Below, piece by piece: positions 33,714 through 47,706 of a stretch of DNA of 64,000 bases. This DNA comes from an uncultured Ignavibacteriales bacterium (GTDB lineage Bacteria; Zixibacteria; MSB-5A5; GN15; FEB-12). Numbering within the stretch: the stretch's first letter is position 1; each line of letters begins with the position of its first letter. A model generated the notes under the pieces. The model was not told the DNA's origin and did not search any database. It saw only the letters and a list, made by a program, of their open reading frames with translations. The position numbers and the translations under genes were made by a program. Where the stretch lies: assembly GCA_964464605.1 (NCBI GenBank), contig CAYXJN010000005.1, positions 62,001-126,000 of the forward strand. Direction: 5' to 3'.

Positions 33714-36050
33714 TCAGTTGGCGGAATCAGGTGTCAAAATGAGCGTTTGAACACTGTGGGCAATGACTTGCTCATGCGTAAATGGCAGATTCCACCGGCG
33801 ACCGGACTCCCACAGCGGGAAAAAGTCAAAGAAATGGTCGCTCATGGGGTTACCGGATTCTCCGGCCGGCAAAACGAGGGTTGCCTCGTCGATTTTTGCG
33901 AAATCGACAATAAACCGCATACTCGGGGCGACAATGGTTCGAAATGAACCATCCTTTGTCGGGACGGCGAAAGCGGCGTTAAGTGTTCCGGACGAACCCG
34001 CCCACGGCCACGGTCCTTTTCGTAATTCCAAAATCGAACTGACCACCGGCACTTCGGCGAAAGGATGCTGCATCGCCAAGCTGTTTATATCCCCCCAGCG
34101 GTTATTGCCGAGATCACCGACTGCGTTTTTCATAGCGGAAAGCAGAGTTGAATCATCGGGTGCGGCGTTTTCGCCGAAAATTTCATCCTCAAGCCAGATT
34201 GTCCGGACACCCCGGGCGAGTGAATCGCCGACCAGGGATGCATGCGACGCCAGCTTCAAATGGCGGATAAACAGCTGGATGACCGCCGTCGGACGCGATT
34301 CCAGATCGGTAGCGCCATCCCATTGAGCGACCGTATCGGCGAGTGCCGCATTCCCCATCTTTCGTAGCTGATCCGCCGCCAGATTTTTCCAGCGCACGAG
34401 ACTGAAATCATGGCAGTCCATCTGGAACTTCTCGCAATCCCGCACCGAAACAAGAACTGCCGAGTCAAGCAGATGATTGATCCGCAGAATCCGGTCGGCG
34501 GCAAACGAGCCGGGAAGTTCATAGGGGAGATTTGTCGCCGGGATATTATTACAGGATGCCAGCCAACCGCGGGGCGGGTTATAAGCATGCGGAGTCATTT
34601 CGAGTGGCCAATACCCGCGCCATTCACACGTACTGTCACTTCCGTTGAGTGGTGCATTACTGTTTGGCAACGGTCGAATCGGGATTGGCGTACCTAACTG
34701 GTAACCGATATTGCCTTGTTTATCTGCGTACATCCAATTGGCATCAAGCGCGCCAAGCGTGGTAACAGCGCGTCGGAAATCTTCAAACTTGCTGACCGTT
34801 CGCAGGGCAAAACCGGAACTGACCGCCTGATTTAAATCGGCATCATACCCTGCCCAACGCTGCGATATAATTTCTTTGGTGGTGGAATCTTTCCAGATAA
34901 CCGGACCATGATGGGTCAGCCAGACCTGCTCGACATGCGGGGAATCAATGCCGTGAATGAACAGCGTTTCGGGAATAACAGAAAAGCTGCGCCACGTTTC
35001 ACCGCTCCAGTAAACGAGTGAATCCTCCGCCTGAGTCGTTTCCCGATAATATTCGGTGACATCGATTCCGGCGGCGGTAAAGGCAAAGGCCGCTTTGCCG
35101 TTGTGTCCCATCACCACGAACGGTAATCCGGGCAAAGAAATTCCCACAGTGCCGCTTGAATCTGCTGCTATGTGTAAACCCACCGCATACCAGAATTGCG
35201 GGAGCCGGCCGATTTCAAGATGCGGATCGGATGATAAAATCGCATTTCCGGAACTGCTTTTACCGGGGCTAATCACCCAGGCATTCGAACCGCCGCTTGG
35301 GGTAGTTAGTCCCGGTAAAATAGCCTGCGCAGTCGCATGACGGAATTGATCGTCGATATCAAAAAAGCTGATTGAAGAATCAGTCGGTACGGTCGGCGGC
35401 GCCCACGATGGATATTTTGTGCTAATCGTGTTGACACTTCCGGCTCCCTTGGTTTTGTACAATTCCAAAAACCAGCTATCACGGTTCTGCAATGAATTGG
35501 AAAACCAGGTTTGAAAGCTCAGGGCGGCAAGACAGTCTTTGACTGTCCATTCAGTGAAGGGGATGCCTAAGATTTGAAATTCGAAGGGAAGCGCTTTACA
35601 GTTTTTGACATAGAAATTAACCCCATCTGCGTAAATCTGTAGACGCTTTTTGTTTTCTTCCGTTAGCGTTGCCATCGCGCTGTCGGCAAGGCGATGGTGA
35701 CCAATTCGGCGCGCTTCCAAATCATATGATAAAGAAATTGGTCCCAGTAACTCAGAAAGTTTCCCCTGCGAAATACGGCGGATAAGCTCCATTTGAAACA
35801 GGCGGTCGGATGCATGCAGCCACCCCATCGAAAAAAGCGCGTCCTGTTCATTCTGTGCCCATACCTGCGGAATACCGAGACTGTCGAAGGTTATTTCAAC
35901 CGGATGCGAGAGTGCTTCGACGGTTATTGATCCTTCCCGCTGTGGAACGGAGTTGTGGAGCGTGACATACACATACAGCACCGCTCCGGCAAGCATGCTT
36001 GCCAAAAGAAGCAGGACAGAACGAAGGATGGTTTTCGTACGGGGTTTCAC
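33714..36050 (-). CDS. Penicillin acylase family Ntn-hydrolase, membrane-anchored or exported
   Basis: N-terminal TM; GWLHASDRLFQME, autoproteolysis site GG|SNAW, SDPHL, PGLP.V.MGHN, PSMRFIVD, GESGNP. GTG start overlaps the upstream TAG. Confidence 0.92.
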   Translation of the reverse strand: MKPRTKTILRSVLLLLASMLAGAVLYVYVTLHNSVPQREGSITVEALSHPVEITFDSLGIPQVWAQNEQDALFSMGWLHASDRLFQMELIRRISQGKLSELLGPISLSYDLEARRIGHHRLADSAMATLTEENKKRLQIYADGVNFYVKNCKALPFEFQILGIPFTEWTVKDCLAALSFQTWFSNSLQNRDSWFLELYKTKGAGSVNTISTKYPSWAPPTVPTDSSISFFDIDDQFRHATAQAILPGLTTPSGGSNAWVISPGKSSSGNAILSSDPHLEIGRLPQFWYAVGLHIAADSSGTVGISLPGLPFVVMGHNGKAAFAFTAAGIDVTEYYRETTQAEDSLVYWSGETWRSFSVIPETLFIHGIDSPHVEQVWLTHHGPVIWKDSTTKEIISQRWAGYDADLNQAVSSGFALRTVSKFEDFRRAVTTLGALDANWMYADKQGNIGYQLGTPIPIRPLPNSNAPLNGSDSTCEWRGYWPLEMTPHAYNPPRGWLASCNNIPATNLPYELPGSFAADRILRINHLLDSAVLVSVRDCEKFQMDCHDFSLVRWKNLAADQLRKMGNAALADTVAQWDGATDLESRPTAVIQLFIRHLKLASHASLVGDSLARGVRTIWLEDEIFGENAAPDDSTLLSAMKNAVGDLGNNRWGDINSLAMQHPFAEVPVVSSILELRKGPWPWAGSSGTLNAAFAVPTKDGSFRTIVAPSMRFIVDFAKIDEATLVLPAGESGNPMSDHFFDFFPLWESGRRWNLPFTHEQVIAHSVQTLILTPDSAN

Positions 36051-37405
36051 TAATTATTAATACCGCAGGCGGGGGCGGGAATACGGCCGCCGCGACGGAT
36101 AAAATCGGCAGAGGAAAACCGGGAGACCGGCATAATCGGGGCGGTTCCTAAAAGGCCGCCATACTCGACTGATTGACCGACTGTTTTGCCGGGAACCGGA
36201 ATAATACGGACGGCAGTGGTTTTGTTGTTCACCACACCGATAGCGGCTTCATCGGCAATAATCGCCGCGATAGTTTCAACTGGTGTATCACCGGGAACAG
36301 CGACCATATCAAGTCCGACTGAGCAGACAGCCGTCATCGCTTCCAATTTTTCAAGTGATATTGCACCTGCTTCGACTGCGCGAATCATACCGGCATCTTC
36401 AGAAACCGGAATGAACGCGCCGGATAACCCACCGACAAACGAGGAAGCCATCAACCCTCCTTTTTTCACCGCGTCATTCAGCAGCATGAGCGCTGCCGTA
36501 GTGCCGGGTGCGCCGCAGCGTTCGATTCCCATCGCTTCCAGAATATCCGCAACCGAATCTCCTTCGGCGGGAGTGGGGGCTAACGAGAGATCGACAATCC
36601 CAAACGGAACGCCGAGCCGTTCGGATACTTTTCGTCCTGCCAGTTCTCCCATACGGGTTACTTTAAAGGCAGTGCGTTTGATAACTTCAGCCAGCGTTCC
36701 GATATCACAGCTGCCTGCTTTGCGCACGGCGTTGAGTACGACGCCGGGGCCGGAGATACCGACATTGATAACCACTTCCGGTTCGGAAACGCCATGAAAG
36801 GCACCGGCAATGAACGGATTGTCTTCTACCGCATTGGCGAAGACGACCAATTTGCAGCAACCGAGCGCATTTTCCGTTTTGGCGGCGGTGTCTTTGATGA
36901 TATGACCCATCAGCGCGATCGCATCCATGTTGATTCCCGCTTTGGTCGAGGCGACATTTACCGATGAGCAGATTCGTTTAGTGGTAGCAAGGGCATCCGG
37001 AATCGATTCGATTAGGTTGCGATCACCGGTGGTCATCCCTTTTTGTACTAATGCGCCGTAGCCACCTAAATAATCGATACCGAGTTCTGCTGCGCAGTTG
37101 TCGAGTGTTTCGGCGATTTCGATGAGGGTCCCTTTATCATGTCCGCTTCCGACGATACCGATCGGGGTTACAGCGATTCTTTTGTTCGCGATCGGAATAC
37201 CGTAATCGGCGGAAACTTTCTCGACGGTTTTGACATGATGCTCTGCTTTGGCAAGCAGTTTGGCGCGGATATTGGCGATTAATCGCTTCGGGTCGGAAGT
37301 CGCACAATCCAACAGCGAAATGCCCATGGTGACGGTACGGATGTCGAGATGCTCGACTTCCGTCATATGAATCGTTTCGACTATTTCCTGCGGATGGTAT
37401 GACAT
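36050..37405 (-). CDS. UPF0210/DUF711 PFL-like family protein
   Basis: [81 protein letters not shown]. Confidence 0.93.
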
Positions 37406-37429: not shown

Positions 37430-37957
37430 TTAAATACGGTGCATGTAGCGGAAGATGTCTTCATGCATGATGAACACCTTCATGCCCAGCTGCGTTTCGG
37501 TATCTTTGATCCGGTCACGTACCAGCGCAAAGTCCATTTTGCAGTCCTGAATATCGACAATCATGATCATCGAGAAAAAATCCTGCATGATTGTCTGCGA
37601 AATATCTTCGATATTGCAGTGCAGTTCCGCCAGCACTTTGGTAATGGCCGCGACAACGCCCGGGCGGTTTTTGCCGAAGGCCGCCACGATCACGCGGTTG
37701 CTTTGTCCCTGTGATATCTTGTTGTAAAGCCCGGAAACATCGCTCCCCGGTTCAGTGAAATTTGCCAGTGAAGATTTGGAATCCCGTGATGAGGCCGCGC
37801 AGGTGACAGCAGGAATCGACGGATTCCCCTGATCCTGTTTCATCGAATCGACGACTGAGTCGATTACCCGGCGGAGCGCTTTGGCATCAAGCGATGCGCC
37901 CATCCGCCCGACAACAATTTCCGTAATCCGGCTGATTTCCTGTTCAGAAAAATTCAT
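37430..37957 (-). CDS. UPF0237 ACT-domain protein with ~85-aa N-terminal extension
   Basis: GKNRPGVVA, NIEDISQTIMQDFFSMIMIVD and C-terminal EDIFRYMHRI; lies directly upstream of UPF0210 as in the known pair. Confidence 0.9.
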   Translation of the reverse strand: MNFSEQEISRITEIVVGRMGASLDAKALRRVIDSVVDSMKQDQGNPSIPAVTCAASSRDSKSSLANFTEPGSDVSGLYNKISQGQSNRVIVAAFGKNRPGVVAAITKVLAELHCNIEDISQTIMQDFFSMIMIVDIQDCKMDFALVRDRIKDTETQLGMKVFIMHEDIFRYMHRI

Positions 37958-37960
37958 GTG

Positions 37961-38098
37961 TTACGCGCGTGATGAGAATTGCGAACGTTCGGTGTATCGT
38001 TCGATCAGTTTTGCGGCGACGAACCCGATGATGATACCGGCAACGAATGAAGCCAGCCATTCCAGACGGCGTTTGGTTTGTTCGCTTAACGGTTTCAT
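37961..38098 (-). CDS. Small single-pass membrane protein, 45 aa (absent from ORF track)
   Basis: MKPLSEQTKRRLEWLASFVAGIIIGFVAAKLIERYTERSQFSSRA*; ATG overlaps the BMC-P stop (ATGA); TAA ends 3 nt before the ACT gene ATG, filling the gap exactly. Confidence 0.75.
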   Translation of the reverse strand: MKPLSEQTKRRLEWLASFVAGIIIGFVAAKLIERYTERSQFSSRA

Positions 38099-38421
38099 CC
38101 GGCTTTTTTCTTGTAATGAATTTTTTCGGGGTCCAAATCGCCGGTATAGAAGCTCGACTGTACTTCGTATTCGTCGATGATTCCGGTAACGGCTGCTTCG
38201 ATGGATGCGTTCTCATTCCCAATCGCCAAACGAGCGGCGCGGCCATAGGCGACAATCACCACTTCACCTTCGCCTGCACCGAGTACATCGGCTGCGACAA
38301 CGGTATCGGTATTCGGTGCTTTTTTCAGGTTAATGGGCTGGATAATGAGAAATTTGAGGCCATCGGTATTCGATGTTTTTCTCGTTGCCCAGAGTGTGCC
38401 GACGACGCGCCCGATAAACAT
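38095..38421 (-). CDS. BMC vertex pentamer (BMC-P, EutN/CcmL family)
   Basis: MFIGRVVGTLWATRK...GLKFLII...VAADVLGAGEGEVVIVAYGRAAR...IEAAVTGIID. Confidence 0.95.
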   Translation of the reverse strand: MFIGRVVGTLWATRKTSNTDGLKFLIIQPINLKKAPNTDTVVAADVLGAGEGEVVIVAYGRAARLAIGNENASIEAAVTGIIDEYEVQSSFYTGDLDPEKIHYKKKAG

Positions 38422-38423
38422 GG

Positions 38424-38942
38424 CTAACCCAGTTTCAGCGCGCTCTTGAGGGCATCCACCAACTGCGCTTTGCCGGCCATCGAAATTTCCCGTCCCTTAA
38501 TGCTGAGGTTAGAAACGGTGCGGGCTAACTGACGAAGTTCAGTAACAGTCATGTTTTCAAGTTCATGCGCGGAGGTTGGCTGCTTGATACTATCGCCGCC
38601 ATATTGCGAGTCACTGTGAATCGAGCTTAAGGCAGGGCGATTATCGGGATTGTATTTCGATACATAACGCGCATCCGGCAGTATCGTTACCAGTTCATTG
38701 TCCGGGCGGGGGATAACAGTGGTAGCGACCACTTCACCTGCTTGTTCTGCTGCGCGAGCGCCGGCTTCAACGGCTGATTGCACTGCGCTGAGTTCACCTT
38801 CAATGCGAAGGGTAAGATAGGCGGCATCGGTAACTTCAGCGGAAGATACCACCACACCGGCCGCTTTTGCTGCTGCATCGGCGGCGACAATCGCGCCGAT
38901 AAGGCCGTTTGTTTCGATAAGTCCAAGTGCGAACATTGTCAT
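38424..38942 (-). CDS. BMC shell hexamer (BMC-H) with C-terminal helical extension
   Basis: ALGLIETNGLIGAIVAADAAAKAA, GELSAVQSAVEAG, VIPRP; tail ELENMTVTELRQLAR...GREISMAGKAQLV. Confidence 0.95.
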   Translation of the reverse strand: MTMFALGLIETNGLIGAIVAADAAAKAAGVVVSSAEVTDAAYLTLRIEGELSAVQSAVEAGARAAEQAGEVVATTVIPRPDNELVTILPDARYVSKYNPDNRPALSSIHSDSQYGGDSIKQPTSAHELENMTVTELRQLARTVSNLSIKGREISMAGKAQLVDALKSALKLG

Positions 38943-39134: not shown

Positions 39135-39150
39135 CGCAAATTTTTTGCCG
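39135..39150 (-). promoter_or_regulatory. Candidate sigma54 -24/-12 promoter
   Basis: Minus strand CGGCAAAAAATTTGCG has exact GG-N10-GC spacing with GGCA and TTGC cores; downstream of a sigma54 activator gene. Confidence 0.5.
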
Positions 39151-39389: not shown

Positions 39390-41636
39390 CTAATGGAGCG
39401 CAACTCCTTCAACATGAATCTGGTACCGCTTGATCTTCGAACGGACCGTTGCTTCATGAATTCCGAGCAGGCGGGCAGCTTCGGATTTGTTTCCTTTTGC
39501 CGCCAAGAGTGCATCGGTAAGCAGCTGACGTTCAAATTGCTCAATGCGATCGAAGAAGGTGGTCGATTGGACCGCCGTCGTGTTGGTAAACATCGGCCGG
39601 GCGAGTTCAACCAGATCACCGTTACCCAGTTCTTCTGCCTGAGCTTCCAAGCGTTTCACTTTGTTATAGAGTTCGCGCACATTACCCGGCCAATGATAGG
39701 CAAGGAATGTTTGTAACAGTTCTGCGCTGACTTTAAATCCGCGCTGTCCGAGTGTTCCATTCGTAATGAACAGATCAAGCAGCAGCGGGATATCTTCTTT
39801 CCGTTCACGCAGCGCTGGGATATAGTGAATATCTCCGTCACAGATGCGGAAATACAGATCACGGCGGAACAGACCGCCTTCAACAAGCGAGGTCAAATCC
39901 CGATTTGTGGCGCAGATTAGGTTGATATCCAGTTTGACGGGTACCGTGCCGCCGAGCGGAGTAACTTCCCGACGTTCGAGCACACCGAGCAGTTTGGCCT
40001 GTAAATGAAGCGGCATGTCGCCGATTTCATCCAGAAACAATACACCGCCGTTGGCCGCGACGAACAATCCGGCTTTGTCCTCACGTGCGTCGGTAAATGC
40101 ACCGCGGCGATAGCCGAACAATTCCGATTCCAAAAGGGAGTCAGGTACACCGGCACAGTTGATCGACACAAACGGCGTTCCCGGGCGAACCTTGGAATGG
40201 AAAAAACGCGCCATCTGATCTTTACCGACACCTGTTTCTCCCGTTAACAAAACGGGAAGATTGGAGCGTGAGCCGATCAGCACGATCTGCTGTTTTACCC
40301 GTTCGACCGCAGCACAGCGAGTGATGAAATCAGCACTCTGCTGTTTGCTCTGATCGCTGCCGGCGATTTTGCGCTGATTGGTTTGTTCGAGCGCTTCGCC
40401 GATTTTATCGATCATCGTCGTGTGTCCGGATTGCGCGTAATATTCTTCAGCGCGAATCAGGTGCAGTACCCGTTTGTTGACCGGTATAGCAGTTGCGCAG
40501 CCGGCAAAGTATAGGATTTCCGCTTCTTCGAATCGCACACCGGATTGACGGGCTGATTCGATTGCACGGGCCCAGAATTCCTTTGCGGTTTCCTGCTGTG
40601 TTTCCGCTTCGGCAATCATGGCTAAAATGCGGTGCAGTCCGGCAAGATCACCGGTATTCGGCGTTTCCTGCATGACCACGATCGCTTTCTGCGCCAGCTG
40701 ACGGGCAGTGCGATAGTCACGAAGCGAGAGATTAGTTTCGGCTAATTGGCGCATCACGCGCGCGGTTAAACCGGAATCAGGCAGTACCTGTTCGGATAAA
40801 CGCAACGCATGAGCCAATACCTGTTTGCTTTCTTCAAGCAAACCCATACGGCGGCGCAGTTCGCCGATGTAGCTGTAGTACATCACTTCATCTCGCTTGT
40901 CGCCTGATAAACGGAGCGGTGTTACCGCTTCGCTCAAGGTTGCATCCGCTTCGGCATAATGACCGGATTGGATACAGGCGTAGGCGTAGGACATAAGGGC
41001 ACGGGCTGTTTCGGCATGGTCACGCAACGCGCGGGAGAGTTCGATATTGGTGCGCAAATGCGCTTTTGCGGATTGCAAGTTTCCGGAGAACAGATGGATA
41101 CGGCCGATATTACCGGTCATCAGGGCAATTTTTGCCGTATCGTTAAGTTTGTGCGCGATTTCCAGTGCATCGGCCAGAACATTCAACGCATTTTTCAAAT
41201 CATGCTGCTTGAAATAAATTCCGGCGAGACTGTTCAGCGCCCGCGCCTGACCTTCCAACAGGTCAAGGCGACGGAAGAGTGATTCGGCATCACGGAATGC
41301 CTGTTCCGCTTCTTTCGGTTTATCACTCTTTTTGAAAATATTGCCCAGCACGAAGAAAACTTCTGCGAGTTCCGCGGTTTCTCCGTTTTGGGTAAGGAAA
41401 TGCTGCGCCATGCGGGCAGCTTTTAGTGCGGCTGTGAGGTCAGCCAGCGCGCTGTATGCAGAAGCGGCCATTCTCATGAGAATGCCGGATTCTGCATCGG
41501 CTCGCTGTTCAATAACGGGACGATGAATATCCACGTACCGGACCACACCCGCAAAATCCCGCTTTTCAAGTAATGTCGCGGCTATGCGAACATCAAATGA
41601 TGTGGGATTCGACGATTCTGTGAAGGTACGGTTCAT
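39390..41636 (-). CDS. TPR-repeat sigma54-dependent activator (bEBP) with Fis-type HTH
   Basis: About 400 aa of TPR-like repeats; Walker A GETGVGKD, ESELFG, GAFTDA, FLDEIGD, FRRDLYFR, WPGNVREL; HTH GNKSEAARLLGI. Confidence 0.93.
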   Translation of the reverse strand: MNRTFTESSNPTSFDVRIAATLLEKRDFAGVVRYVDIHRPVIEQRADAESGILMRMAASAYSALADLTAALKAARMAQHFLTQNGETAELAEVFFVLGNIFKKSDKPKEAEQAFRDAESLFRRLDLLEGQARALNSLAGIYFKQHDLKNALNVLADALEIAHKLNDTAKIALMTGNIGRIHLFSGNLQSAKAHLRTNIELSRALRDHAETARALMSYAYACIQSGHYAEADATLSEAVTPLRLSGDKRDEVMYYSYIGELRRRMGLLEESKQVLAHALRLSEQVLPDSGLTARVMRQLAETNLSLRDYRTARQLAQKAIVVMQETPNTGDLAGLHRILAMIAEAETQQETAKEFWARAIESARQSGVRFEEAEILYFAGCATAIPVNKRVLHLIRAEEYYAQSGHTTMIDKIGEALEQTNQRKIAGSDQSKQQSADFITRCAAVERVKQQIVLIGSRSNLPVLLTGETGVGKDQMARFFHSKVRPGTPFVSINCAGVPDSLLESELFGYRRGAFTDAREDKAGLFVAANGGVLFLDEIGDMPLHLQAKLLGVLERREVTPLGGTVPVKLDINLICATNRDLTSLVEGGLFRRDLYFRICDGDIHYIPALRERKEDIPLLLDLFITNGTLGQRGFKVSAELLQTFLAYHWPGNVRELYNKVKRLEAQAEELGNGDLVELARPMFTNTTAVQSTTFFDRIEQFERQLLTDALLAAKGNKSEAARLLGIHEATVRSKIKRYQIHVEGVALH

Positions 41637-45396: not shown

Positions 45397-47706
45397 TCAA
45401 AACTCGGTGCTGAAGCCGATACTCGGGAAAATTCCTAAGTCATAAATATATTTGCGACCGGTGAATATTACCGGATTGGCACGGTTGGTCACGTTGCTAA
45501 CCGACGCATACAGGGCAGAATTTCCAAAATCAACTGAACAGTGCACGTTAAGCGCCGCGTTAATCGGAAACTCGCGGGTGTTTTCACTGCGCAGATAATT
45601 CTGGTAATAGGATTCCGTATAGCGGTCTTCGGTGTTTGATGGCAGAAGAATGTAATTGGAATGATCCGGAGAGTACGGGTACCCGGAACGGATTTGCAAA
45701 CTGCTGCCGACCGTAAACCGGTTGGAGAAACGCCATTTGGCATCGAGCATAAACCGGTGCGGCGAACTTAAATCATACGGCGCTTCGATCCCGTGCGTCT
45801 GTTTGATCGCGTGAGTGAATCCGTAATAGGTGTAGATATCCAGTTTATTATGAATGATATTTTTCAAATCAAAACTGATATCGGCGCCGGTAAAAGCCAT
45901 CGTTCCGTTGGAGCGCATAGTAAGAAAACCGGGTTCAGGTACCGGGACCGGGTCGTCGTGATTGATCTTGTTAAAATCGGGCGTAAGCGTCGGGTAACGG
46001 TCAATTTCTTTTACGAAGATCGTTCCGCGAACGAACCGATGGGACAAATGAAACGATGCCAAATACGTATTCACCGGTTCAAGATATTCCGCGCTGGCGC
46101 GAGTAAGTACCTGATACGGTTCAAGTACCCGTGTAATCGGGTTTTCGGCGAACGTTCCTAAAAAGAGTTCGGCAGTCGTCTGTTTAGTAACGGCAACGGC
46201 AAAACGCTGGCGAAGGGCTACGGCAGATGGATCCCCCAATTCACTGAAGGTATGCACCCGAACGCCGCTTTCAAGAGTCAACTTGCCGAACTGCTGCGAA
46301 AGTGAAAAATATCCGGCATAGTTTTGGGCGTCAGCGGTGTGGTGGTATGTCCCGTACAGCATATTCAGTTCGGGCGTGTAGATAAACGGGTTGTCGGTGT
46401 TAGCATCCGGCGGCAAGAAATTCCAGTTCTGCTGTTTCAAATCGGTCATGCGGTCGAAAATCATTTCCGCTTCAAAGCCGATTTGGAATTTCCGGTCAGC
46501 ATACACCAACTCAGCGGCGGAGTTGGCATTTATCGTTTTGCTTTTTTCTTTTAAGTCACCGATAACTTTCGAGGGTTCATTCTGCCAACCGTTGACGGAG
46601 TAACGCTCATCGGATTGCGTGTATGACACCGCGGATTTAACCGAAAGTGAACCGTTTAGCATCATTTCATCCCGCACGCCGATATACTGCCGGGAAGTCG
46701 CAACATAGGTTTCAATGCCGGGGTCGCCATCGTTGGGGGCACGTTCATATTTTAGATTGTCAGTGACATCGTACCCATCGACAAACAATGAGCGGGTGCT
46801 GTTTACTTTGTAACCACCGGAAACGAAAATATCGCGGAATTTGGTTGGGGGGATTTTGTCTCCTTCTTTCGTCGAGTTGAATGTTTCGGCGAATTGATCG
46901 ACTATCGACTGGCGAATTGAACCGAGCGCAAAAAAACGGTCGCTGCCGTACCGGTAGGAACCGGTCGCTTCAAGCAAGGAAAGATAGAGGTCTCCACCGA
47001 TTCCTTGATCGAATGGTGTCGGGGTTTTCAGCTCGACGACGGAGGGGAGGCCATATTTGGCGGAAGTTCCCTGTGGATAAAACTGTACGTTGTCGACAAC
47101 CGATAACGGCAAAATCGAAAACAAGCCGTAGTGGTTCGGATCAGCGCCCATACTGCTACCGTTGATAAAATACTGCGGCGAGGTTCCATTGATTCGCAGA
47201 GTGGAAGAATGAGCAGAGCCGCGACGGCTTATCTGCGGTTCCTTGAGCGAAGTGAGCGGGTTGGTGGAAACCAGAGACTCTCGCGCATCTTGACGCAGCC
47301 GGTGATGAGTGATCGATTGGGTAAGCGCATCCCGTGATTCTTGCGGTACCACCGTAATACTTTTCAGTTCGACTTCTTTTTCCTGAAGCGTAATGATGTA
47401 GCCGTCGGTATTTGGTATTGGGGTAATCGGGATTATCGCGGAATCATAGCCGATAGCAGTTATGCGCAGATAAGTATGGATATCTGAGGCAAGCTGTACC
47501 GGAATTTGGAAGAGCCCGTTTGCATCGGTGCTTTTTCCGGTTACCACGCTGCCGTCGATTACCACGGCTACTGAAGCGCCAAAAACCGGCTGGCCGGATT
47601 GGTCGGTTACTGTTCCGTGAAACAGAGGAAGCGCGCTTATGCTTGCTGACAAAACCGCCACCAACAGGGCGGGTACAATGATTTTTGCAAAGAGAGTTTT
47701 CACCAC
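45397..47706 (-). CDS. TonB-dependent receptor-like outer membrane protein
   Basis: Signal peptide; GTVTDQSGQPVFGASV (CarboxypepD_reg-like); plug-like segment LRING...SAKYG; barrel strands SGVR, SGYPY, NVTNR; C-terminal Phe. Confidence 0.8.
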   Translation of the reverse strand: MVKTLFAKIIVPALLVAVLSASISALPLFHGTVTDQSGQPVFGASVAVVIDGSVVTGKSTDANGLFQIPVQLASDIHTYLRITAIGYDSAIIPITPIPNTDGYIITLQEKEVELKSITVVPQESRDALTQSITHHRLRQDARESLVSTNPLTSLKEPQISRRGSAHSSTLRINGTSPQYFINGSSMGADPNHYGLFSILPLSVVDNVQFYPQGTSAKYGLPSVVELKTPTPFDQGIGGDLYLSLLEATGSYRYGSDRFFALGSIRQSIVDQFAETFNSTKEGDKIPPTKFRDIFVSGGYKVNSTRSLFVDGYDVTDNLKYERAPNDGDPGIETYVATSRQYIGVRDEMMLNGSLSVKSAVSYTQSDERYSVNGWQNEPSKVIGDLKEKSKTINANSAAELVYADRKFQIGFEAEMIFDRMTDLKQQNWNFLPPDANTDNPFIYTPELNMLYGTYHHTADAQNYAGYFSLSQQFGKLTLESGVRVHTFSELGDPSAVALRQRFAVAVTKQTTAELFLGTFAENPITRVLEPYQVLTRASAEYLEPVNTYLASFHLSHRFVRGTIFVKEIDRYPTLTPDFNKINHDDPVPVPEPGFLTMRSNGTMAFTGADISFDLKNIIHNKLDIYTYYGFTHAIKQTHGIEAPYDLSSPHRFMLDAKWRFSNRFTVGSSLQIRSGYPYSPDHSNYILLPSNTEDRYTESYYQNYLRSENTREFPINAALNVHCSVDFGNSALYASVSNVTNRANPVIFTGRKYIYDLGIFPSIGFSTEF

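Follow-up and report, generated by a model that had tools for sequence, protein, structure and literature searches.

An N-terminal two-helix module on the ACT-domain partner of DUF711 in genomes with microcompartment shell genes: a candidate targeting signal

Introduction

A stretch of 64,000 nucleotides (nt) from an uncultured Ignavibacteriales bacterium (assembly GCA_964464605.1, contig CAYXJN010000005.1, positions 62,001 to 126,000; hereafter the window) encodes on its minus strand a protein of 175 amino acids (aa) in which an ACT domain of the UPF0237 type is preceded by an N-terminal extension (37430..37957). The gene lies downstream of two bacterial microcompartment (BMC) shell genes and directly upstream of the gene of a DUF711/UPF0210 enzyme. 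The extension is composed of several distinct elements, most of them well conserved among homologues, it is restricted to genomes carrying shell genes, and the ACT and DUF711 genes form a recurrent pair. We favour, with a probability of about 0.55, the reading that this extension is a microcompartment-targeting signal of the encapsulation type, borne by the small partner of the DUF711 enzyme. Here, we describe the build and the distribution of the extension, weigh this reading against its alternatives and compare the system with known ones.

Anatomy and conservation of the extension

The ACT domain occupies residues 87-175 (37433..37699, minus strand, as all window features below). The NCBIfam model NF001220, which has 90 positions, matches these residues at its positions 2-90 with 104 bits against a cut-off of 74, Pfam ACT_6 (PF13740) matches residues 88-162 (E 3.4e-13) and PDB entry 1ZPV, a 91-aa ACT protein, aligns to residues 88-175. 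Because NF001220 and 1ZPV align only from residue 87 or 88 to residue 175, the 86 residues upstream are additional. An earlier sequence-only reading had set the 175 aa of this open reading frame (ORF) against the lone ~90-aa ACT domain typical of UPF0237, and these matches bear it out: the protein departs from the stand-alone form and belongs to the family by its domain, to which a module has been added.

The first 41 residues (37835..37957) hold the two helices singled out in that reading, at residues 4-19 and 24-40. An AlphaFold2 model of the full protein, built with 73 homologues, places helix 1 at residues 5-18 (37904..37945) and helix 2, an amphipathic helix resembling an encapsulation peptide, at residues 25-42 (37832..37885), both with a predicted local distance difference test score (pLDDT) of 62-70. 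Residues 44-74 fall below pLDDT 50; they comprise a G-N-P...T-C motif defined by the alignment consensus and predicted to be disordered (residues 44-53, 37799..37828) and a variable disordered linker (residues 54-73, 37739..37798). Still within the extension, a further helix at residues 74-83 (37709..37738) precedes the ACT domain, which is modelled at pLDDT above 90; UPF0237 proteins of 90 aa start at the first strand and lack this pre-ACT helix. Folded alone, the module again gives two helices (residues 5-19 and 25-44, pLDDT 74-80) and no residue reaches 90; since the predicted template modelling score (pTM) is 0.33, the isolated module has no confident compact fold. A look-up of residues 1-60 in the ESM Atlas returned no usable match.

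A search of 5.8 billion proteins recovered 143 homologues of the ACT protein, 96-307 aa long and mostly covering 100% of the query, the nearest being 91% identical overall. Conservation was measured on an alignment of 73 homologues as the mean pairwise identity of each region over the 58 rows with a long linker. Helix 1 (0.75) is about as conserved as the ACT domain itself (0.73), followed by the G-N-P...T-C motif (0.64), helix 2 (0.62) and the pre-ACT helix (0.62), and the variable linker drops to 0.19. Across all 73 homologues, helix 2 and the pre-ACT helix are separated by 5 to 80 aa (median 41); short linkers characterize the Ignavibacteria-type proteins, in which as few as 5 aa lie between helix 2 and the next element. 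The G-N-P...T-C motif is absent from these versions and from families f10 and f20. The extension thus consists of two conserved helices, a short motif, a variable tether and another conserved helix, and is richer than the two helices and ~45-aa linker first described. The linker is variable and predicted to be disordered; the length first given for it does not hold, as it amounts to about 30 aa (residues 44-73), the rest being the conserved motif at 44-53 and the pre-ACT helix.

Close homologues of 99-106 aa were considered as true short forms and rejected. All five that could be placed on DNA (P0094, P0095, P0098, P0099 and P0101) encode the module in frame upstream, their starts having been mis-called: P0098, P0099 and P0101 have a plain ATG at the start of the module, in P0095 the ATG-started module is interrupted by an in-frame TAA, and P0094 lacks an ATG, GTG or TTG start upstream of the module.

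The module and shell genes across genomes

If the extension served a compartment, it should be confined to BMC-linked homologues, as the sequence-only reading had anticipated, and should not be common in genomes devoid of shell genes. We surveyed 80 loci from species-representative genomes, sorted with hidden Markov models (HMMs) built from the sequences of this analysis. All 32 module-bearing loci belong to genomes with BMC-domain genes. Shell genes lie within 10 kb in 23 of them, accompanied by EutN in 20 of these 23, and in the remaining nine the BMC genes are found elsewhere in the same genome. Among the 46 module-less loci, there was no BMC, EutN or PduS match within 10 kb. By first start codon, 41 of the 46 encode ACT proteins of 90-111 aa; three carry a different extension and two have doubtful upstream starts. 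The last two of the 80 loci are deletion variants, one of which (L106) keeps BMC-H and BMC-P genes within 10 kb of the truncated locus. The anticipated confinement was therefore found, and the extension did not prove common outside shell-gene genomes.

Five genomes with module-less loci were searched entirely. Four have no BMC domain; the fifth has 18 BMC matches and yet a short ACT protein, so the extension tracks this type of compartment rather than compartments in general. The three different extensions occur in L119, L120 and L123 (Syntrophomonadaceae and Clostridia records), where the ACT partner of DUF711 is 156 aa long and bears an unlike N-terminal extension of ~65 aa; Pfam sees only an ACT domain in it, at residues 70-143. 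No shell gene lies within 10 kb of these three loci, and the one genome of the three that was searched whole has no BMC domain.

The phylum of the window was examined through 285 species genomes, among which 98 have BMC domains, 57 an aldehyde dehydrogenase (AldDH) match at E <=1e-60, 53 DUF711 and 41 a strong ACT match; a 42nd genome gave only a weak ACT match, to a different frame of 404 aa. BMC genes are present in 40 of the 41 ACT genomes as against 98 of 285 overall, the exception being a genome that is 72% complete. Alignment to the query begins at its residue 1-3 in 34 of these 41 genomes, either in the match itself or in a second one within that open frame. Seven genomes remain: two deletion variants (G106 and G109), three cut at contig ends (G055, G200 and G272), G203, and G201, in which reading of the ORF confirmed a diverged module. 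In family f4, a single one of the 33 genomes has the ACT protein, and it is the sole genome there with a solid BMC match. The module is also retained where the ACT, DUF711 and shell genes are dispersed, as in family f10 and in the Ignavibacteria type. Families f16, f17 and f18 have shell genes and AldDH with neither ACT nor DUF711, so the ACT-DUF711 pair is an accessory module of this compartment.

Some lineages call for separate mention. Many genomes of family f1 (e.g. G034, G038, G039, G045, G059 and G061) have a single BMC match (E ~1e-17 to 1e-22, in frames of up to 252 aa) and no AldDH, ACT or DUF711 match; solitary extended BMC-H genes, or remnants, may account for them. The two deletion variants (L105 and L106, in genomes G106 and G109) are decayed loci in which an in-frame fusion joins approximately the first 50 residues of a PduS-like protein to the linker of the ACT protein, at the cost of BMC-T and the module; in G106 DUF711 is reduced to a fragment, and neither genome has an AldDH match at E <=1e-60. 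Family f14 was rejected as a control within the phylum, as its DUF711 is divergent (382 aa) and its annotated locus L048 has no adjoining ACT gene.

The ACT-DUF711 pair

The DUF711/UPF0210 gene (36050..37405) encodes 451 aa and is assigned by PF05167 (E 1e-186), NF003700 (717 bits) and PDB entry 2HA9 (E 6e-167). Its start is separated by 24 nt from the ACT stop codon (37430-37432). The Pfam domain spans residues 14-421 of the 451, leaving no terminal extension, which upholds the earlier premise of an untagged UPF0210 enzyme. The pairing extends well beyond the lineages with the module: the ACT gene directly precedes DUF711 in 43 of the 46 loci devoid of the module, which represent a few archaea and several bacterial phyla, and the pair is found in Bacillota, Actinomycetota, Anaerolineae and a few archaea. 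We infer that the ACT protein physically binds DUF711; the matches of the 2HA9 and 1ZPV searches included no ACT-DUF711 co-structure in the PDB.

As judged from their listing, the papers found under the names UPF0210/DUF711 and UPF0237 give no function for either family. Glycyl-radical enzymes are signature enzymes of other microcompartments. A review of ribonucleotide reductase evolution reports that ECOD assigns the solved DUF711 structure 2HA9 to the ten-stranded barrel superfamily together with ribonucleotide reductases and glycyl-radical enzymes, and that no radical glycine was found (PMC4390871).

Resemblance to encapsulation peptides

Encapsulation peptides are defined as amphipathic helices of 15-20 aa that a flexible linker connects to the cargo (PMC8217296; PMC11157265). 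The published work defines them by architecture and not by sequence; the signal sequences of the Pdu system were found by comparison with homologues outside compartments (PMC12108088). They bind on the lumen side, where tessellating hexamers leave a hydrophobic groove between them (PMC11157265).

The genome of the window offers a direct reference, since its AldDH has a classical N-terminal amphipathic helix followed by a linker rich in S, P and G. The best hydrophobic moment of helix 2 is 0.75, close to the 0.76 of this AldDH peptide and above 0.58, the 99th percentile of a background drawn from the cores of two proteins, ACT and AldDH. One hydrophobic register accommodates helix 1, helix 2 and the AldDH peptide in an ungapped alignment, with scores reached by 199, 219 and 137 of 5000 column shuffles, the last figure being that of helix 2 against the AldDH peptide. 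An architecture filter requiring an N-terminal amphipathic 14-mer and then a linker-like stretch in ORFs of at least 100 aa, with thresholds set after the ACT values had been seen, passes 11 of 4148 ORFs, the ACT protein and AldDH both among them. A plain search for the hydrophobic pattern was rejected as a detector because 345 of the 4148 ORFs match it and signal peptides dominate among them.

Helix 2 accordingly has the size and amphipathicity of an encapsulation peptide. The extension is terminal and contains a flexible, poorly conserved linker, though with a conserved motif and a conserved helix inside it, and it is missing in homologues unconnected to compartments, the groups compared being related by descent. 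Of the two helices described as amphipathic, helix 2 is strongly and helix 1 only moderately so.

A candidate cargo adaptor and its alternatives

The mechanism that we propose starts from the acquisition, in one set of related lineages, of an N-terminal module by the UPF0237 partner of DUF711. Through the hydrophobic face of helix 2, and perhaps also that of helix 1, the module would attach to the interior surface of the shell or insert into the cargo core of a metabolosome of the AldDH type. The variable linker, predicted to be disordered, would tether the module to the ACT domain, which in turn would bind the untagged DUF711 enzyme and have the pair loaded together. The two helices may serve two contacts, one with the shell and one with the cargo core. 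Docking, ACT-DUF711 binding and co-encapsulation are inferred. The sequence-only reading had already cast the ACT protein as an adaptor drawing the UPF0210 enzyme into the shell. The restriction to shell-gene genomes, the succession of helix, linker and cargo and the absence of a tag on DUF711 are in favour of this idea; it is weakened by the lack of a match to an encapsulation-peptide HMM and by a module that is more than two simple peptides.

Several observations weigh against a targeting signal. The best hydrophobic moment of helix 1 is only 0.47, and the register similarities are weak, the pattern being one shared by any amphipathic helices. Comparison with encapsulation-peptide HMMs had been suggested as a check: helix 2 equals the AldDH peptide in amphipathicity, but a model built from 14 AldDH peptides, which recovers AldDH itself at 29 bits, does not include the ACT protein among 805 weak domains in the 4148 ORFs, so that similarity to the peptide models of its own system is wanting. 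Ten matches to a profile of the module were obtained from 1.84 billion representatives, eight of them ACT proteins or fragments thereof and two spurious repeats; the module is therefore seen on no other cargo. Its conservation is far above that of a typical encapsulation peptide and it includes two further conserved elements, which argues for a more specific partner or a folded unit. All module-bearing proteins are kin, coming from records titled Zixiibacteriota, GN15, Calditrichaeota, Ignavibacteria and Melioribacteraceae; the counts are for this reason not independent events, and the association with shells may reflect one or few of them. Loss of the module in genus g33 (G106 and G109) says little, because the whole locus has decayed there.

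Part of this evidence would suit a small helical unit, specific to these lineages, for self-association or for regulation of ACT-DUF711, for instance bundling as a hairpin or folding back on the enzyme rather than targeting the shell. The high conservation of both helices and of the further elements, the confinement of the module to ACT proteins, the silence of the AldDH-peptide HMM and the 5-aa minimum of the Ignavibacteria-type linker, by which the helices stay near the ACT domain, all point that way. We nevertheless regard such a unit as unlikely: the module alone, at pTM 0.33 and with no residue reaching a pLDDT of 90, shows no confident compact fold, the otherwise long, variable and disordered linker fits a tether better than a domain junction, and the presence of all 32 module loci in shell-gene genomes, against none of 46 module-less loci with shell genes nearby, is left unexplained. 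High conservation also suggests a defined interface, and the module could, rather than serve as a general signal for the lumen, dock the ACT protein to one specific partner from the locus. Candidates are BMC-T, the PduS-like protein and the extended BMC-H, at its outer face or its C-terminal tail. The gene order BMC-H, BMC-P, PduS-like, BMC-T, ACT, shared by 20 of the 23 loci that have shell genes close by, agrees with this; yet the genome of the window lacks BMC-T and the PduS-like protein and keeps the module intact, and the ACT gene lies apart from the BMC-T and PduS-like genes in Ignavibacteria and in family f10, which makes this option less probable still.

The kinship of the module-bearing sequences raises the further question of whether the extension simply arose once in a compartment-bearing ancestor and has no functional relation to the compartment. 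Their lack of independence, the Ignavibacteria-type ACT-DUF711 pairs that are not adjacent to shell genes and the AldDH compartments of families f16, f17 and f18 that do without ACT or DUF711 count in favour of such a coincidence of descent. Shell genes are, however, patchy in the phylum (98/285) and still present in 40 of the 41 ACT genomes, 23 of the 32 module-bearing loci have the ACT gene within the shell operon, and the build of the extension is specifically that of an encapsulation signal; among the explanations considered, we find this one the most improbable.

Should the targeting reading be correct, a regulatory-type ACT subunit with a double helix would join the known ways of loading cargo, and engineering would gain a compact natural tag. 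Structures have been solved for both members of the conserved gene pair UPF0210/DUF711 and UPF0237 (2HA9 and 1ZPV). If one lineage packages the pair in a compartment, the chemistry of the pair probably includes an intermediate that is reactive, toxic or volatile and is linked to the acylating AldDH, which narrows the search for a substrate. A bolder and doubtful extension of the targeting reading holds that DUF711 and its ACT partner are the signature enzyme of an uncharacterized AldDH metabolosome, DUF711 making or handling the confined reactive intermediate, with one helix holding the shell and the other bundling the cargo. It would give the first functional handle on two widespread bacterial and archaeal families of unknown function.

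The locus and its compartment

The neighbours named in the sequence-only reading (BMC-H, BMC-P and DUF711/UPF0210) are those identified by Pfam. The BMC-H shell protein (38424..38942, 172 aa) matches PF00936 at residues 5-80 (E 1.1e-20) and the pentameric BMC-P shell protein (38095..38421, 108 aa) matches PF03319 (E 1.3e-26). The BMC-H protein has a C-terminal extension of ~80 aa with a weak SAP-like match (PF02037 at residues 128-170, E 0.004), and the extended versions of relatives measure 185 to 299 aa. Upstream of the shell genes lies a gene for a protein with tetratricopeptide repeats and a sigma-54 activator domain (39390..41636, PF00158, E 2.7e-56), a homologue of which occupies the same position in loci L034 and L036-L040 of relatives. 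A search for sigma-54 promoters allowing at most one mismatch found none in the spacer upstream of BMC-H; a GG-N10-GC element at 39135-39150 on the minus strand, with two mismatches to the consensus and statistically unsupported, is located ~190 nt upstream of the BMC-H start and downstream of the activator gene.

Between BMC-P and the ACT gene lies an ORF of 45 aa with one hydrophobic helix (37960..38098), which appears translationally coupled: it overlaps the BMC-P stop as ATGA, and the ACT start is 2 nt past its own stop. It has no family match in Pfam or NCBIfam. An ORF with a hydrophobic stretch (39-141 aa, mostly 46-62) holds this position after BMC-P in 15 of 20 related loci, and the sequence is not conserved with these positional counterparts. 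The idea that the ORF is a deletion scar was rejected in view of these similar small hydrophobic ORFs; its product may be a small membrane protein, or one associated with the shell, in compartments of this type. On the other side, a penicillin-amidase-family gene of 778 aa (33714-36050, minus strand) abuts the DUF711 stop codon. Locus L040 has a homologue 42% identical to it ~0.85 kb downstream of DUF711, with an ORF of 237 aa between the two, and the other relatives have different genes in its place.

In relatives, the usual order is sigma-54 activator, extended BMC-H, BMC-P, small hydrophobic ORF, a PduS-like flavo-iron-sulfur protein (440 aa), a tandem-domain BMC-T (183 aa), extended ACT, none to two unrelated genes and DUF711. 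Unlike loci L033, L038 and L084-L104, the genome of the window lacks the PduS-like and BMC-T genes, whose place would be between the small ORF and the ACT gene (window 37958-38094); its sole PF01512 match is 25% identical to the PduS-like protein. The ACT module is intact despite the loss of these genes.

The same genome has only two BMC-domain (PF00936) genes, and the window locus has one PF03319 gene. The second BMC-domain gene belongs to a satellite locus outside the window (genome G000, contig C11, 45026-47697), which encodes an HTH_11 regulator, a canonical BMC-H of 94 aa and, after it, the acylating AldDH (46162-47697; 511 aa; NF011927, 592 bits). This AldDH is conserved in the 57 phylum genomes counted above, including those of families without ACT or DUF711. 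Of the components expected of an AldDH-type metabolosome, BMC-H, BMC-P and an AldDH with an encapsulation peptide are present; the genome, at 100% completeness, yielded no match for a phosphotransacylase of the PduL type (PF06130). This fits the kind of locus described as having an incomplete core, and the compartment is classified as an AldDH metabolosome with an incomplete core and no assigned substrate.

Comparison with known systems

Our literature search, which did not extend to the locus diagrams of the 2021 microcompartment catalogue (Supplementary Data 2 and 3), returned no paper joining DUF711/UPF0210 with microcompartments or an ACT domain with an encapsulation peptide, and none joining Zixibacteria with a microcompartment. 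The Pfam number of DUF711 was not found in the three supplementary files of the catalogue that were searched (PMC8217296). Its locus diagrams may already record this locus type and even a peptide drawn on the ACT protein.

The nearest precedent in that catalogue is an ACT-domain model, HMM01842act_1_acimic3, listed for the ACI and MIC3 compartment types (Sutter et al. 2021, PMC8217296, Supplementary Data 6). It too represents an ACT-domain protein recurrent in uncharacterized AldDh-type compartments, which may or may not belong to the present family. The ACI AldDh is on a satellite locus, as here, and resembles only that of MIC3 (PMC8217296).

Compared with the UPF0237 ACT proteins represented by NF001220 and 1ZPV, the protein described here has the same full-length ACT domain and its gene is likewise directly upstream of DUF711. 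It differs from the UPF0237 proteins of module-less loci, which are 90-111 aa long in 41 of 46 cases and lack both the module and nearby shell genes. With the peptide of its own AldDH (type II AldDh class, Sutter et al. 2021), the extension shares a genome and a shell, the succession of a helix, an S/P/G-rich linker and an enzyme, and, in helix 2, the hydrophobic moment and the hydrophobic register. The AldDH peptide is a single helix, unlike the two-helix ACT module, which its HMM does not match.

The closest functional parallel is PduD, whose residues 1-18 load the whole diol dehydratase PduCDE into Pdu compartments (PMC12108088). The ACT extension is distinguished by its two helices, its two more conserved elements and its ACT-domain carrier, and is described from sequence and structure prediction. 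Like the ACT extension, the PduD signal is an amphipathic helix at the N-terminus of one subunit and is missing in homologues outside compartments. It also brings along the untagged partner subunits of PduD (PMC12108088), and by analogy the ACT extension would do the same for DUF711.

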